Shown here piece by piece: positions 6,671 through 9,261 of a stretch of 64,000 nucleotides of DNA; the stretch's first letter is position 1, and each line of letters starts with the position of its first letter. A program made the position numbers and the translations under genes. The notes under the pieces are model-generated. The model worked only from the letters and a program-made list of their open reading frames with translations. It searched no databases and was not told where the DNA came from. Origin of the DNA: Candidatus Hydrogenedentota bacterium (GTDB lineage Bacteria > Hydrogenedentota > Hydrogenedentia > Hydrogenedentales > SLHB01); the NCBI GenBank assembly GCA_963745075.1, contig CAVUWV010000008.1, forward strand, positions 256,001 to 320,000. The letters run 5' to 3'.

Positions 6671-6832
6671 GCGTTTGGTGTGCTCGCCTGGACTAACATT
6701 GCGCAGTTTCCAGGGTACCTTCTATTCCGATCCGCACGTTCCGCTCTCCAAGTTCGGCACCGGAGACATCGGCAGTTCCCTGTGATACACTGCGCCCCGC
6801 AAGGTGTGGCGGATCTACTTCAGAGGTGCACG

Positions 6833-7876
6833 ATGAAACCACATATCCCCAAGATCCTCGCGGCATGTTCGCTGATACTGAACTCATGCGCGCTGATCTT
6901 TTTCGTAAGGTGGCTCTTTAAGCTAAAAGTTTCTGGCATTGCCGGCCATGTTGGTTTTCAAGTGACGCATCGAGGACCGGTGGAGTGGTTGATAGCGGCT
7001 CTCGTGCTCTCCATCCTTGGCGTACTAACGACGGTTGTCAGCCTGATCGGCCTGACGCGTAAGCGCGGTGCTGCGCACCCGACCCATTCATCATGGCTGC
7101 GCGTGTTGACCGGCCTCGCGCTCCTGGGCGTTACCGCGCCGGCAATTGGTATCATTCCAGGCAGTGCATTGCTGCTGCCAAGTGCACAACGGGAAGCCCG
7201 CCGAGAGGCCGCAATCCACGATCTACCCGAAATAGACCGGCTTCTGAAGGCCCTGAAAGATGAAAATTACGACGTCCGCCGCGACGCAGCGCAAAAGCTC
7301 AGAAGCGAATCGTGGCTGCCCGAAAGCGCAATTCCCACGCTCACGAAGGCAGCGGCGCGCCATGATGGAGAGCCCAGTACTTTGTCCGTCCAAGCGCTGG
7401 CCCATTTCCACAATATCCCGGACGATGTGGCCCCTCGCCTGGTGGGCTTACTGGACACGCCGGAGATAGGCCCCGTCGCGGGAGAGGTTTTGGGCGGGTT
7501 TGGCGAGACGGGTGTTGATGCATTGTTGAAGGCATCAAAATCGCGAGATGCGCAGGTGCGCCAGTCTGCCGCGCACGGCCTGGGAAAATGTTCCAACTTT
7601 AAGGAAGAAATAATCCCGCAGCTCACGGGACTGCTCAGCGATGAGAACGGCTCCGTGAGGGCGGCTGCTGCGATGTCTCTGGGCAGTTGGGGCGTCAAAT
7701 CGAAATCCGCGCTTCCGATACTGCAATCCATGGCAAACGATCCCGACCCCGATGCCCGCAGCGATGCGGGATGGGCCGCCCGTGAAATTGCAAGTCGAAC
7801 CAGATCGCCCAGTCAGCCGTTACCGTTACGCGACGGTGGGCCTTTGGGCCAAACAAAAAGCGCCCCGGCCCAGTAA
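6833..7876 (+). CDS. Membrane-anchored HEAT-repeat protein
   Basis: Three N-terminal hydrophobic helices, then repeats LKDENYDVRRDAA, SRDAQVRQSAA, LSDENGSVRAAAA and DPDPDARSDA. Confidence 0.8.
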   Translation: MKPHIPKILAACSLILNSCALIFFVRWLFKLKVSGIAGHVGFQVTHRGPVEWLIAALVLSILGVLTTVVSLIGLTRKRGAAHPTHSSWLRVLTGLALLGVTAPAIGIIPGSALLLPSAQREARREAAIHDLPEIDRLLKALKDENYDVRRDAAQKLRSESWLPESAIPTLTKAAARHDGEPSTLSVQALAHFHNIPDDVAPRLVGLLDTPEIGPVAGEVLGGFGETGVDALLKASKSRDAQVRQSAAHGLGKCSNFKEEIIPQLTGLLSDENGSVRAAAAMSLGSWGVKSKSALPILQSMANDPDPDARSDAGWAAREIASRTRSPSQPLPLRDGGPLGQTKSAPAQ

Positions 7877-7953
7877 TCACCGGACCGGGGCATATATGCA
7901 TAAACCCCGGCTAAAAAGTACTGCCGCCGAGGGAAGGCATATGGCTCCCCGAG
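7848..7953. repeat. 106-bp direct repeat, copy 1 (tRNA 3' end, trailer and terminator); copy 2 at 8327-8432
   Basis: GCCAAACAAAAAGCGCCCCGG...GGAAGGCATATGGCTCCCCGAG occurs twice, 479 bp apart, with about 7 mismatches by eye. Confidence 0.95.
7849..7891 (-). terminator. Rho-independent terminator, duplicated copy
   Basis: On the minus strand a GCCCCGG(T)CC stem is followed by GCTTTTTGTTTGG; one stem position differs from copy 2. Confidence 0.7.
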
Positions 7954-8054
7954 TCACGCCGCACGCGTGATCTGCGACAGACTCGAACTTGCGACCTAGT
8001 GGTTAATCCCGCGTGCCGCGGGACTCTACCAACTGAACTCGGGATTACTCGGGG
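7942..8054 (-). pseudogene. Pseudo-tRNA-Asn with three sequence replacements
   Basis: Colinear with the tRNA at 8421-8496. On the + strand, CA is replaced by 25 nt (7954-7978, including hairpin TCACGC-CGCAC-GCGTGA), CAGCCACCCG by hairpin TCCCGCG-TGC-CGCGGGA (8007-8023), and GCTA by ACTCGGGATTAC (8037-8048). Confidence 0.9.
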
Positions 8055-8311
8055 TCTCCCCGTGTCACGTCATCGAAATAGCGCCCGATGCCCCGTTTCT
8101 TGATCTTCTTTTCCAACGCCATGGCCTCGGCCCGGGTCGGCAATTCGCATTTCCAGACGAGTTCCCATGGGCCTTCGAAACGCTTTGTAGTCTTGGAGCC
8201 ATGATAGTCAGGATCGTTGTGTTGGGCGATGCGGCGTTCGACATTGTCAGACGAGCCACAGTAGTAACGCCCCGTGGTTGCGCTTCGCAGAATATACGTC
8301 CAGCAAGGCAT
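8045..8311 (-). CDS. Small stand-alone GIY-YIG nuclease (88 aa)
   Basis: WTYILRS...YYCGSSDNVERRIAQHN...SKTTKRFEGPWELV...RAEAMALEKKIKK. Both motif tyrosines and the Arg, His and metal-binding Glu positions are present. Confidence 0.92.
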   Translation of the reverse strand: MPCWTYILRSATTGRYYCGSSDNVERRIAQHNDPDYHGSKTTKRFEGPWELVWKCELPTRAEAMALEKKIKKRGIGRYFDDVTRGDPE

Positions 8312-8327
8312 CGGTAGCCCCCTACCG

Positions 8328-8370
8328 CCAAACAAAAAGCGCCCCGGTCCAGGTTGCACCGGACCGGGGC
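8328..8370 (-). terminator. Rho-independent terminator of the tRNA-Asn transcript
   Basis: Perfect 10-bp stem GCCCCGGTCC/GGACCGGGGC (8341-8370) followed on the minus strand by GCTTTTTGTTTGG, 50 bp after the tRNA CCA. Confidence 0.85.
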
Positions 8371-8420
8371 ATATATGCATAAACCCCGGCTAAAAGATAC
8401 TGCCGCCGAGGGAAGGCATA

Positions 8421-8496
8421 TGGCTCCCCGAGCAAGACTCGAACTTGCGACCTAGTGGTTAACAGCCACCCGCTCTACCAACTGAGCTATCGGGGA
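8421..8496 (-). tRNA. tRNA-Asn (GTT), 76 nt, encoded CCA
   Basis: The reverse complement reads TCCCCGA TA GCTC AGTTGGTA GAGC G GGTGG CTGTTAA CCACT AGGTC GCAAG TTCGAGT CTTGC TCGGGGA GCCA, a complete cloverleaf. Confidence 0.98.
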
Positions 8497-9178
8497 TTAA
8501 ACTTGCTTCCGAAATTACTCGGACGGTTAATCCCGCCATGGGCGGGACTCTACCAACTGAGCTATCGGGGATTAAACTTGCTTCCGAAATTACTCGGACG
8601 GTTAATCCCGCCATGGGCGGGACTCTACCAACTGAGCTATCGGGGATTAAACTTGCTTCCGAAATTACTCGGACGGTTAATCCCGCCGTGGGCGGGACTC
8701 TACCAACTGAGCTATCGGGGATTAAACTTGCTTCCGAAATTACTCGGACGGTTAATCCCGCCGTGGGCGGGACTCTACCAACTGAGCTATCGGGGATTAA
8801 ACTTGCTTCCGAAATTACTCGGACGGTTAATCCCGCCGTGGGCGGGACTCTACCAACTGAGCTATCGGGGATTAAACTTGCTTCCGAAATTACTCGGACG
8901 GTTAATCCCGCCGTGGGCGGGACTCTACCAACTGAGCTATCGGGGATTAAACTTGCTTCCGAAATTACTCGGACGGTTAATCCCGCCGTGGGCGGGACTC
9001 TACCAACTGAGCTATCGGGGATTAAACTTGCTTCCGAAATTACTCGGACGGTTAATCCCGCCGTGGGCGGGACTCTACCAACTGAGCTATCGGGGATTAA
9101 ACTTGCTTCCGAAATTACTCGGCCGGTTAATCCCGCCATGGGCGGGACTCTACCAACTGAGCTATCGGGGATTAAACT
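8473..9178 (-). repeat. Tandem array of nine 75-bp tRNA-Asn-derived units
   Basis: Exact 75-bp period, with CTCTACC at 8473 (inside the tRNA), 8548, 8623 ... 9148. Minus-strand unit: 28-nt leader, tRNA nt 1-24, TCCCGCC-CAY-GGCGGGA, tRNA nt 35-40. The only variants are in the hairpin loop (ATG x3, GTG x6 on +) and A>C at 9123. Confidence 0.97.
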
Positions 9179-9203
9179 CGGTCCCGACCCCACGCCACGC
9201 TCT

Positions 9204-9247
9204 TCAAGCCCGCCAAGCGCCGGACTTTACCAATTGAGCTATCGGGG
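9204..9247 (-). repeat. Degenerate tenth array unit
   Basis: TCAAGCCCGCCAAGCGCCGGACTTTACCAATTGAGCTATCGGGG aligns without gaps to the unit consensus with about 7 substitutions; it sits 77 bp from unit 9. Confidence 0.85.
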
Positions 9248-9261
9248 TCAGTTTGACTCAA

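Follow-up and report, generated by a model that had tools for sequence, protein, structure and literature searches.

The window examined here, a stretch of 64,000 nt from a Candidatus Hydrogenedentota bacterium, carries one intact tRNA-Asn gene flanked by partial copies of itself, and raises the question of why ten of these copies have all lost the same ten nucleotides and carry a 17-nt hairpin in their place. A small gene for a GIY-YIG nuclease lies among them, and closely similar arrangements occur in relatives and in many bacterial phyla. Altogether, this recurring architecture resembles a selfish DNA cassette of a kind not described before, and the reading preferred in the present study is that it probably represents a minimal selfish nuclease cassette which inserts in tRNA genes but leaves the tRNA restored, with the hairpin as a selected terminal structure and with fragments that were amplified by breaks and recombination. 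The full-text literature that was searched contains no published description of such a nuclease/tRNA/hairpin family.

Organization of the tRNA-Asn Locus

The features of the locus are collected in Table 1. The intact tRNA-Asn is the sole gene for this tRNA that ARAGORN finds in the assembly, and within the window it is the only one of the tRNA-Asn copies that is called by either ARAGORN or Rfam, the repeat units and the pseudo-tRNA being passed over by both. This agrees with the original prediction that the substitution, which removes G34, destroys the anticodon. Searched at E values up to 1, Rfam gave only tRNA and a chance plastid match, and a known RNA family was rejected.

Table 1. Features of the tRNA-Asn locus, in window coordinates.
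Feature	Position	Strand	Basis or remark
Spacer DR-B	7846..7940	-	Similarity to DR-A; terminator scan
Second terminator-like hairpin, in DR-B	7892..7861	-	Terminator scan
Pseudo-tRNA, downstream of the GIY-YIG ORF	7941..8044	-	BLAST and motif matches
Pseudo-tRNA: 3' acceptor strand with CCA	7941-7953	-	
Pseudo-tRNA: second hairpin, in place of the 3' T-stem strand	7954-7970	-	
Pseudo-tRNA: tRNA nt 35-62	7979-8006	-	Identical to intact gene
Pseudo-tRNA: hairpin	8007-8023	-	TCCCGCG-GCA-CGCGGGA (- strand)
Pseudo-tRNA: tRNA 5'-half mimic	8024-8044	-	
GIY-YIG ORF, 88 aa	8048..8311	-	Pfam PF01541; stop codon 8045-8047
Strong terminator-like hairpin in DR-A	8371..8340	-	Terminator scan
Spacer DR-A, between tRNA-Asn and nuclease gene	8330..8420	-	~92-93% identical to DR-B
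tRNA-Asn (anticodon GTT), intact	8421..8496	-	ARAGORN; Rfam tRNA, 70.9 bits
Nine tandem 75-bp units, upstream of the intact tRNA-Asn	8497..9171	-	TRF; motif matches; BLAST
Make-up of an array unit		-	tRNA-Asn nt 1-24, 17-nt hairpin, TTAACC, ~25 nt ending GCAAGTT, then TAA
Array hairpins	8531-8547, 8606-8622, 8681-8697, 8756-8772, 8831-8847, 8906-8922, 8981-8997, 9056-9072, 9131-9147		Spacing 75
Degenerate unit: tRNA 5'-half-like stretch, then decayed hairpin	9179..9250	-	BLAST, 87% identity to unit

Upstream of the tRNA, TRF describes the array as having a period of 75 with 9.4 copies and 99% matches, and its units are also found by BLAST with tRNA nt 1–24. The units are contiguous, with no spacers between them, and a CRISPR-like array was rejected on this ground. 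As single-stranded DNA, one unit folds with −12.9 kcal/mol (z −3.48). The outermost of the nine has one more substitution, outside the hairpin, and beyond it lies the degenerate unit, in which two D-arm mismatches and hairpin arms without perfect pairing can be read from the sequence; this is the oldest unit, adjoining the native tRNA promoter region. Only in this genome do the second small hairpin of the unit and the end of the nuclease ORF (3') have a 9-nt word in common. No further copies of the unit, and no nuclease paralogues, occur elsewhere in the same genome.

On the other side of the tRNA, the spacer DR-A is part of the cassette; it also follows the tRNA in the relatives G002–G005, and is absent after the tRNA in relatives that are free of the nuclease. 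The similar spacer DR-B appears to be what is left of another cassette that has lost its nuclease gene, and in G003, G001 and G013 a truncated second GIY-YIG copy follows at the corresponding position. Expression of the nuclease gene is uncertain, since a strong terminator stands between it and the tRNA and no promoter was predicted.

The Hairpin and Its Junctions

In all nine units and in the pseudo-tRNA, nt 25–34 of tRNA-Asn are absent and the junctions read GGTAGAG, hairpin, TTAACC (10/10 copies), just as had been proposed from the window. On the plus strand the array hairpin is TCCCGCC-RTG-GGCGGGA (TCCCGCC-CAY-GGCGGGA on the minus strand) and varies in its loop only, which is ATG in three units and GTG in six, while that of the pseudo-tRNA is TCCCGCG-TGC-CGCGGGA. 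The seventh and innermost stem pair is C-G in the former and G-C in the latter, so that the flip described in the original prediction, with pairing kept, was also confirmed. Its phrase 'every copy' needs qualification: all ten carry the swap, but their independence was overstated, as the nine units are tandem copies with 99% identity and represent one amplified event, leaving two independent lineages and one compensatory pair in the window. The claim of a selected structure rests on comparative data. What takes the pattern beyond chance is its recurrence in relatives together with a genome-wide motif search, in which TCCCGC-N5-GCGGGA matched 14 times in 6.8 Mb, with 10 of the matches at this locus. 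By this count a dispersed REP, which had been named beforehand as an explanation that would undo the prediction, was rejected.

Junctions were compared at 23 loci, which gave 33 fragment pairs recognized solely by BLAST to the neighbouring tRNA; as loci from related genomes are non-independent, these and the following counts overstate the number of events. The right breakpoint falls at G34|T35, after the first anticodon base, in all 33 pairs, and the left one depends on the lineage, 19 pairs having it after nt 24 and the other 14 after nt 28. Site-specific breakpoints had been predicted, and this holds for the right side but not universally for the left. The same junction is seen in several phyla, also at other tRNA species. 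Since the hairpin follows TTAA in some lineages, or sits in the T loop, the rule is a hairpin adjoining a tRNA loop rather than one fixed site. Displaced 3' halves in the relatives are mostly 100% identical to the host's own tRNA.

Several lines of evidence indicate that the stem is selected, as originally suggested. A perfect stem of at least five pairs is present in 19 of 21 distinct inserts, against a mean of 0.8 after shuffling. In a metagenome scan with a pattern that fixed five stem pairs only and left the inner positions free, the latter were paired in 59 of the 63 distinct sequences, whereas shuffling gave 18.5 on average and never more than 29. The covariation check proposed beforehand gave a score of 0.212 versus 0.056, which was reached by none of 500 shuffles; variants at pair 6 include A-U, C-G, G-U and U-G, and at pair 7 C-G, G-C, U-A and U-G. 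Conservation of the hairpin solely as coding sequence was rejected, as the ORF ends before it in 21 of 53 distinct junctions; in the others the ORF ends at the anticodon-loop TAA (28), inside the hairpin (1) or later (3). A fold-back or P-nucleotide origin from the flanking tRNA was likewise rejected by reading, since the arms are not complements of the flanks.

These data bear directly on whether the hairpin fragments could be neutral scars, that is, the inherited and tandemly duplicated product of one ancient tRNA rearrangement, for example of integrase type, in which the hairpin has no role. The single amplification event behind the nine units would fit such a history, tRNA-Asn is a known integrase hot spot, and translations of several metagenome contigs show integrase-like ORFs behind the tRNA. 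When species of one genus are compared, however, stems remain perfect while loops and the sequence after TTAACC have diverged, and with the compensatory changes, the repeated appearance of the junction across phyla and tRNA species, and the lack of an integrase within the ~480-bp module, a scar of this kind is highly improbable.

The GIY-YIG Nuclease

Between the tRNA repeats the GIY-YIG gene is the only ORF with a family match. Its product scores 67.5 bits against Pfam PF01541 (cut-off 22.6; E 1.3e-18), whereas the group I intron endonuclease model TIGR01453 gives 17.7 bits, below its cut-off of 56.05. A profile of 10 homologues searched against the PDB found the UPF0213 proteins 1zg2 and 1ywl (E 8.7e-12) and chains of SLX1, a structure-specific nuclease (E 1.5e-7), and the protein is accordingly predicted to be a stand-alone nuclease of the UPF0213/Slx1 type. 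Its 88 aa comprise the catalytic domain only, with no attached DNA-binding domain. Residues Y6, Y17, G19, R27, H31, N32 and E67 are intact here and invariant in the 10 homologues, and among them are the conserved Tyr, Arg, His/Asn and Glu that we take to have the catalytic roles usual for the GIY-YIG fold. Its nuclease activity and target, like the role of the hairpin, are inferred.

The gene is single-copy, tblastn of its own genome returning one match. A phage origin was rejected: the nuclease matched no PHROG family and, by tblastn, none of 50,697 phage records, and the hairpin pattern had 0 matches in viral contigs. Plasmids gave three weak nuclease matches, of 35–37% identity.

Linkage to tRNA Genes and Distribution

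Homologues of the nuclease number at least 357. Of 80 related loci, 54 have a same-strand tRNA that ends no more than 200 nt ahead of the first nuclease copy, and 12 of the remaining 26 have less than 250 nt of upstream sequence. The linked tRNAs are mostly Asn (39), followed by Pro (9), Val (2), and one each of Arg, Met, Lys and Asp. Tandem nuclease copies, from two to seven, are found in 26 of the 80 loci, and the typical order after the nuclease is a D-arm mimic, a TCC...GGA hairpin and a displaced tRNA 3' half. Distribution among relatives is patchy, with the nuclease present in 12 of 41; those without it have plain tRNA-Asn loci, i.e., empty sites. Hairpin copies are present at six of nine tRNA-Asn loci in nuclease-positive relatives versus none of 21 in nuclease-negative ones, and 39 of 98 metagenome instances of the hairpin follow a GIY ORF, so the preference for GIY-YIG genes that had been anticipated was borne out. 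Pieces of this system turn up in sequencing runs too, a soil run containing part of the nuclease gene and a unit-to-unit junction. None of the runs contained half of the sampled sequence words, and the contigs obtained from four of them showed no joints, ends or sign of expression.

The same comparisons make it improbable that the GIY-YIG gene is a mere neighbour, and that an independent small palindromic element, or hairpin-writing repair, inserts GC-rich hairpins into spare tRNA copies. Extra hairpins do occur in pseudo-tRNAs, such as the one replacing the 3' T-stem strand at 7954-7970, and others are inserted in the T loop after G53 (several lineages), the T arm (L070) and the D loop (G013); moreover, 64 of 146 TCC...GGA hairpins in the loci abut TT, a count dominated by the TTAAC class. 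Such an element would nevertheless have to leave the tRNA-Asn loci of nuclease-free relatives untouched and confine itself nearly to one locus in the present genome. No transposase-like gene is found at the locus, and hairpins up- and downstream in one locus are usually of the same stem class, as expected of one cassette.

Units made of the tRNA 5' half and this hairpin are likewise found upstream of the tRNA in different phyla, and 39 of the 98 metagenome instances lie upstream of an intact tRNA-Asn. In many metagenome contigs such units have no nuclease gene within the ~300 nt of available downstream flank, from which it follows that upstream units can persist, and perhaps act, without it. 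This persistence of solo units would suit an RNA-level function, in which the tRNA promoter drives transcription of units and pseudo-tRNA and the products work as structured RNAs. The repeats could serve as a decoy or antitoxin RNA to which the nuclease binds, in the manner of type III toxin-antitoxin systems, or the hairpin could mark and stabilize the 3' end of the nuclease mRNA beside a tRNA-like processing signal. On the minus strand the order is indeed repeats, tRNA, terminator and nuclease gene, and with the native promoter region ahead of the first unit, the units would be part of the pre-tRNA leader. The DNA fold of the pseudo-tRNA retains a 7-bp acceptor-like stem as well as the hairpin, and contigs of an estuary RNA library cover the hairpin region of relatives, a weak hint given that DNA carry-over is possible. 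The hairpin also covaries, with three of five non-Watson-Crick cells G-U or U-G. Mismatches are, however, too few for wobble asymmetry to serve as an RNA-versus-DNA test, and a hand count of the listed hairpins (~5 G-T vs 3 A-C) gave no clear excess. The units, moreover, lack the T arm and 3' acceptor strand, no T run follows the hairpin, no transcript ends were seen, and about 17 of about 40 nuclease-bearing tRNA-Asn loci, by a reading of the fragment maps, have no upstream unit at all. The protein, finally, has the fold of a GIY-YIG DNA nuclease and not of a ToxN/AbiQ-type RNase, and a role at the RNA level is considered unlikely.

A Proposed Selfish Cassette

Under the preferred reading, a selfish nuclease cassette, the element consists, in order, of tRNA nt 35–76, the terminator spacer, the nuclease ORF, a D-arm mimic that overlaps the 3' end of this ORF, and the GC-rich hairpin with its TCC...GGA foot. 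Its insertion point would be the anticodon loop, between G34 and T35, where its own 3' tRNA part would rebuild an intact tRNA-Asn upstream, while the resident 3' half would be pushed downstream behind the mimic and hairpin to give the pseudo-tRNA. The 75-bp units may be the mirror product, composed of a genuine tRNA 5' half (nt 1–24), the hairpin and nt 35–56, and amplified in tandem to nine copies in this genome. With this layout, the non-functional copies all lack nt 25/29–34, and exactly one intact tRNA-Asn is left in the middle.

Presumably, the nuclease cuts the tRNA gene at or near its anticodon region, or cuts the hairpin itself. Homologous recombination of the host, acting on the repeated stretches of tRNA sequence, would then bring in a copy of the cassette and expand or contract both arrays, as in experiments with SegB of phage T6. 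The hairpin may be retained since a nuclease that has no DNA-binding domain reads a structure, and/or since the cleavable, functional anticodon stem is thereby gone from the spare copies. Several points stand against this scheme, among them the uncertain expression of the nuclease gene, the upstream units that occur with no nuclease gene nearby, and the other hairpin positions in some lineages. The intact tRNA beside the cassette keeps nt 25–34, so that a simple model of the hairpin as immunity leaves the escape of the functional copy unexplained, and a catalytic domain of 88 aa has no obvious means of recognizing a long site. Nor could a single recombination pathway be derived that gives both the upstream units and an always intact tRNA.

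More tentatively, and as a possibility that is itself rather doubtful, the cassette may exemplify a new class of mobile element. Here, a minimal, structure-specific nuclease of Slx1-like type, devoid of a DNA-binding domain, would be aimed by an element-borne hairpin or cruciform beside a mimic of the target tRNA, and would cut there or at the matching anticodon stem-loop; host recombination would then copy the cassette into anticodon loops and make mirror arrays, with the logic re-used at several tRNA species and in anticodon and T loops.

If the cassette is real, it would provide a nuclease-only route, beside that of integrases, for elements to use tRNA genes without destroying them, and would account for a class of tRNA fragments and repeats in tandem by which tRNA annotation is misled and assemblies are broken. 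It would also offer a compact natural system for the study of how a catalytic domain finds its site without a DNA-binding domain, possibly via the hairpin, and would allow a test of whether bacterial chromosomes, too, are shaped by the kind of nuclease-driven amplification at tRNA loci that was recently demonstrated for phage SegB.

Comparison with Known Systems

Among the closest parallels is SegB, a free-standing GIY-YIG homing endonuclease of the tRNA cluster of phages T4 and T6 that is described as cleaving tRNA-gene DNA (PMC2330249). T6 SegB is reported to drive tandem amplification of a 718-bp tRNA-segB unit through breaks and homologous recombination, a process that involves microhomology shared by the start of the tRNA (5' end) and the end of segB (3' end) (PMC13096335). 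In both systems a GIY-YIG nuclease gene sits among or behind tRNA genes, but whereas SegB is of the I-TevI/Seg lineage and has a DNA-binding part, the present protein is a bare domain of Slx1/UPF0213 type, and its gene is chromosomal and without match among the phage records. The portions of the SegB account drawn on here describe no hairpin-substituted pseudo-tRNA (PMC13096335).

Islands and prophages that integrate into tRNA genes are described as bounded on one side by an intact tRNA and on the other by a displaced 3' fragment (PMC9897764). The cassette resembles them in bringing a replacement 3' tRNA part, with nt 35–62 and the 3' acceptor strand repeated after the ORF. It differs from them in its small size and lack of a tyrosine or serine recombinase gene, in the D-arm mimic and conserved hairpin that precede the displaced fragment, and in the mirror-image 5'-half units upstream and the common tandem reiteration. 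According to Williams in 2002, the anticodon loop is reportedly a crossover sublocation used by some integrases, and the crossover of the cassette lies within the same loop.

Prokaryotic Slx1-like proteins consist of a minimal stand-alone GIY-YIG domain, and a 2006 survey, in the sections relied on here, describes no tRNA-gene role or selfish behaviour for the bacterial Slx1/UPF0213 proteins, merely asking whether further GIY-YIG members act as molecular parasites (PMC1564403). Among solved structures, these YhbQ-like proteins are the best match for the nuclease, which shares their minimal form. Stand-alone proteins of this type are widespread among bacteria, and no role is assigned to them; to judge from the present locus and those related to it, many may be selfish elements that ride on tRNA genes and have a very small, stereotyped anatomy.

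Type III toxin-antitoxin systems like ToxIN comprise tandem direct repeats, a terminator and a small nuclease gene on one strand. This order is present here, but equivocally, as a tRNA gene intervenes and many homologous loci have no repeats. The nuclease, in addition, is a GIY-YIG protein and not an endoribonuclease of the ToxN/AbiQ/CptN type, and the repeats are tRNA fragments. REP/BIME sequences and the ends of IS200/IS605 elements are imperfect, GC-rich palindromes in which the feet are conserved and the loops vary, and which a dedicated nuclease reads as hairpins. The present hairpin has the same general form, but it is not dispersed, abuts a fixed tRNA position, and is accompanied by no HUH or RAYT gene.

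In the Allomyces literature, free-standing GIY-YIG ORFs of fungal mitochondria are reported to insert in a gene and to carry a duplicate of its 3' end, which replaces the original and displaces it, and GC-rich double-hairpin elements are found nearby. The replacement of the 3' end of the invaded gene and the nearby hairpins are thus features in common, although the targets of fungal mitochondrial ORFs are organelle protein-coding genes and no tRNA mimic is involved. Lastly, in its patchy occurrence among relatives, and in the presence of empty and filled alleles of the same site, the cassette resembles the free-standing homing endonuclease genes.

Organization of the tRNA-Asn locus

The features of the locus are listed below. 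Each tandem unit consists of tRNA nt 1–24, a 17-nt hairpin, TTAACC and about 25 more nt. The pseudo-tRNA begins with a mimic of the tRNA 5' half followed by a hairpin of the same size and in the same place as in the units, and continues with nt 35–62, unchanged from the real gene, a small second hairpin that substitutes for the 3' strand of the T stem, and then the 3' strand of the acceptor stem, including CCA. Only the intact tRNA was recognised by ARAGORN and Rfam; neither the units nor the pseudo-tRNA were called.

Features of the tRNA-Asn locus, in order along the - strand
Feature	Position	Strand	Remarks
Degenerate old tRNA 5'-half copy	9250..9179	-
Nine tandem units	9171..8497	-	75 bp each
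tRNA-Asn(GTT)	8496..8421	-	sole tRNA-Asn gene in the assembly
Spacer DR-A	8420..8330	-	~90 bp; strong terminator-like hairpin
GIY-YIG ORF	8311..8048	-	88 aa
Pseudo-tRNA	8044..7941	-
Spacer DR-B	7940..7846	-	second spacer copy

Motif matches in the window bear out the breakpoints of the original prediction, and its hairpin sequences, the flipped innermost stem pair of the pseudo-tRNA and the restriction of variation within the array to the loop are likewise accurate. The hairpin does occur in every copy, as was claimed, but the array copies are not independent: since the array (9.4 copies by TRF) is 99% identical, its nine units represent a single amplified event rather than nine observations. 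The genome search proposed at the time, for TCCCGC-N5-GCGGGA, gave 14 matches in 6.8 Mb, ten at the locus and four with unrelated flanks, a count on which a dispersed repeat was rejected. A genome search detected no further copy of the nuclease gene or the units.

Other hairpins are also present. The second one of the pseudo-tRNA (7954–7970; 17 nt, 6-bp stem, 5-nt loop) is unrelated to that at the anticodon site, and two congeners (G003 and G004) carry a different extra hairpin near the matching place; hairpins seem to accumulate in old pseudo-tRNAs. Each unit has an extra hairpin about 10 nt past TTAACC (5-bp stem, 6-nt loop), whose 5' arm and loop have a 9-nt word in common with the end of the GIY-YIG ORF, its last codons and stop (8045–8053 region); this word is absent from the units of related species. 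The two spacers are about 92–93% identical. Behind DR-B there is no nuclease gene, and the spacer adjoins the place where a convergent HEAT-repeat-like ORF (6680..7876, + strand) ends, a layout that suggests a second cassette, since lost.

Related genomes

The nuclease was found in 12 of 41 relatives, all in one family. It lies directly behind tRNA-Asn in six genomes (G003, G004, G005, G013, G007 and G006), and in six (G001, G003, G004, G005, G013 and G021) a pseudo-tRNA comes next, its hairpin flanked by GGTAGAG and TTAACC. Past the hairpin, the pseudo-tRNA matches the tRNA of its own species (CCACTAGG here, CCAGCGGG in congeners). A second, truncated nuclease copy occurs downstream in G001, G003 and G013, and upstream units with perfect hairpins and differing loops (3, 4 or 6 nt) in G002, G003, G004, G005 and G013. 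Between these species the sequence past TTAACC is far more divergent than the hairpin stems. Hairpin copies at the tRNA-Asn locus were seen in none of 21 nuclease-negative relatives, which have plain loci, versus six of nine nuclease-positive ones, a lower bound because copies with CTAACC or TTAAGC were left out.

The tRNA-Asn of the window is 100% identical to that of G013, a different genus, and 93% identical to the matches from its own genus (G002–G005; none in G001), with differences throughout the anticodon stem. The tRNA may have been co-converted along with the cassette, or the polymorphism may be ancestral. At three loci (L003, L007 and L008) nuclease and pseudo-tRNA lie away from an intact tRNA-Asn, beside a tRNA 3'-end remnant only; in L003 (contig C52 of G003) the distance is about 25 kb. 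Such placement suggests relocation, or old, decayed targets.

Junctions and covariation

Fragment pairs were defined by BLAST to the neighbouring tRNA-Asn alone, with no hairpin presupposed. All 33 pairs (23 loci) resume at the second anticodon base (T35), and the left breakpoint is at nt 24 in 19 pairs and at nt 28 in 14, so that beyond the window the identity of breakpoints originally proposed holds for the right side, the left one depending on the lineage. A perfect stem of at least five pairs was present in 19 of 21 distinct inserts (shuffled mean 0.8, maximum 4/21).

Metagenomes were scanned with a pattern in which the flanks and five stem pairs were fixed. At least 121 contigs matched, and among the matches listed, 80 loci held 98 instances with 63 distinct inner sequences. 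Among these listed matches, the unconstrained outer positions were paired in 59/63 (shuffled mean 18.5, maximum 29) and two further pairs formed in 35/63 (shuffled mean 3.7). From the same listed matches, 43 instances with a 7-nt inner part were aligned together with the window's two hairpins. The alignment has 30 distinct rows, and the first five pairs do not vary in it, being fixed by the pattern itself. Pair 6 is A-U in 16 rows, C-G in 12, and G-U and U-G in one each; pair 7 is C-G in 24, G-C in two, U-A and U-G in one each, and unpaired in two. As had been anticipated, the stem pairs covary, with a score of 0.212 against 0.056 in shuffles, reached by 0/500. With this covariation, the near-confinement of the motif to the locus and the relatives' loci, an autonomous hairpin element accords less well, and we regard it as quite improbable; hairpins that are neutral scars, very improbable in our view, likewise agree less well with the motif count, the relatives' loci and the covariation.

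Of the 98 listed instances, 39 lie directly behind a GIY ORF and 39 upstream of an intact tRNA-Asn; the remaining 20, mostly at contig edges, could be assigned to neither position. Upstream units that stand alone in metagenomes are compatible with a role as RNA, either a decoy in a type III toxin–antitoxin-like layout or an mRNA end signal, although we consider this unlikely. In three metagenome contigs (L137, L145 and L177), tRNA-Asn with a solo upstream hairpin unit is followed by integrase-like ORFs whose N-termini resemble phage-type integrases, indicating that tRNA-Asn is used by two kinds of element at once.

The ORF frequently extends into tRNA-like sequence. Among 53 distinct junctions, it reads through the hairpin to stop at the anticodon-loop TAA in 28, and stops before the hairpin in 21 (as in the window), inside it in one and later in three. 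The loops range from 3 to 9 nt, which also speaks against a constraint on the peptide, and by these lengths and the stop positions the hairpin is a nucleic-acid feature.

Distribution across phyla

A homologue scan with one genome per species gave 357 loci encoding a relative, the best 80 of which were analysed. Record titles include Hydrogenedentota, Planctomycetota, Nitrospirota, Desulfobacterota, Ignavibacteria, Zixibacteria, Verrucomicrobia and Bacteroidota, bin names being possibly unreliable. In 54 of these best 80, a same-strand tRNA ends within 200 nt ahead of the first nuclease copy (39 Asn, 9 Pro, 2 Val, and one each of Arg, Met, Lys and Asp); 12 of the other 26 have upstream sequence too short to judge. 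Tandem nuclease copies, two to seven, occur in 26 of the best 80. Behind each nuclease copy lies a pseudo-tRNA that contains a TCC...GGA hairpin. A Bacteroidota record (L097:1043-3460) has seven behind tRNA-Val, each followed by a pseudo-tRNA with a 19-nt hairpin in the exact place of the anticodon arm. Some lineages place the hairpin after TTAA rather than before it, and in some the T loop or T arm is split by a second hairpin.

Another conserved class of insertion (L027, L033, L054, L079, L045/L009) has a hairpin of about 21–24 nt in the T loop, directly after G53 and before TTCGA; these pseudo-tRNAs contain two hairpins, splitting their homology to the real tRNA into short pieces. At L029, L038 and L058 the ORF stops within a retained GGCTGTTAA, at its TAA; the hairpin comes afterwards, substituting for the 3' rather than the 5' anticodon-stem strand. 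Remnants made up of a tail and a hairpin, with no nuclease gene, are also present at L038. Contigs frequently end in or beside arrays (e.g., L002, L005, L010, L011 and L013). Short-read assembly seems to break at these repeats, and MAGs therefore probably understate the copy numbers.

The nuclease

The ORF has a Pfam GIY-YIG match (E 1.3e-18), falls below the cut-off of the intron-endonuclease model (17.7 bits, cut-off 56) and has no match in PHROG. By a profile of ten homologues, the closest solved relatives are the UPF0213 proteins BH0048 and EF2693, then SLX1, a structure-specific nuclease. None of the conserved Tyr, Arg, His, Asn and Glu positions varies among the ten. Judged by its sequence, the 88-aa protein is a bare catalytic domain of the Slx1-like branch. 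A terminator scan places its gene behind a terminator-like hairpin. In those parts of a 2006 superfamily survey (PMC1564403) that deal with it, the Slx1-like branch is the minimal stand-alone form, with no tRNA-gene link drawn.

Proposed mechanism and comparison with known elements

By its anatomy, the element would most likely enter the tRNA gene at G34|T35 carrying its own nt 35–76, so that the tRNA is restored and the old 3' half displaced. A broken end (nt 1–34) may pair with the D-arm mimic, shed the tail that finds no match, and be extended by copying of the hairpin and of the tRNA from nt 35 on; nt 25–34 would thereby be replaced exactly as observed, or nt 29–34 where the mimic reaches nt 28. 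Out-of-register repair between repeated segments could expand both downstream modules and upstream units. That the TCC...GGA foot is conserved, the stems perfect and the loops free suggests recognition of the hairpin by its structure, with which an Slx1-like enzyme would be consistent. A literature search, with many subscription papers outside it, found no account of bacterial tRNA genes that have Slx1-like GIY-YIG genes nested behind them along with tRNA copies in which a hairpin is substituted, and there is a real chance that a new mechanism, guided by structure, is involved.

By analogy, the known kinds involved would be homing-type nuclease elements and tRNA-restoring insertions. Integrase-borne islands follow the same restore-and-displace logic in their general layout (PMC9897764), whereas the module in the window is about 480 bp and has no integrase. 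Since the nuclease is its only protein, copying would have to depend on breaks that the host repairs by recombination, the route used by free-standing homing endonucleases. Among experimental precedents the closest is SegB, described as lying among phage tRNA genes and cleaving tRNA-gene DNA (PMC2330249). In phage T6, according to the account in PMC13096335, SegB drives recombination-dependent tandem amplification of the tRNA-segB unit, the tRNA 5' end and the segB 3' end sharing microhomology through which this proceeds; here, the ORF 3' end is the D-arm mimic, a source of SegB-like homology.
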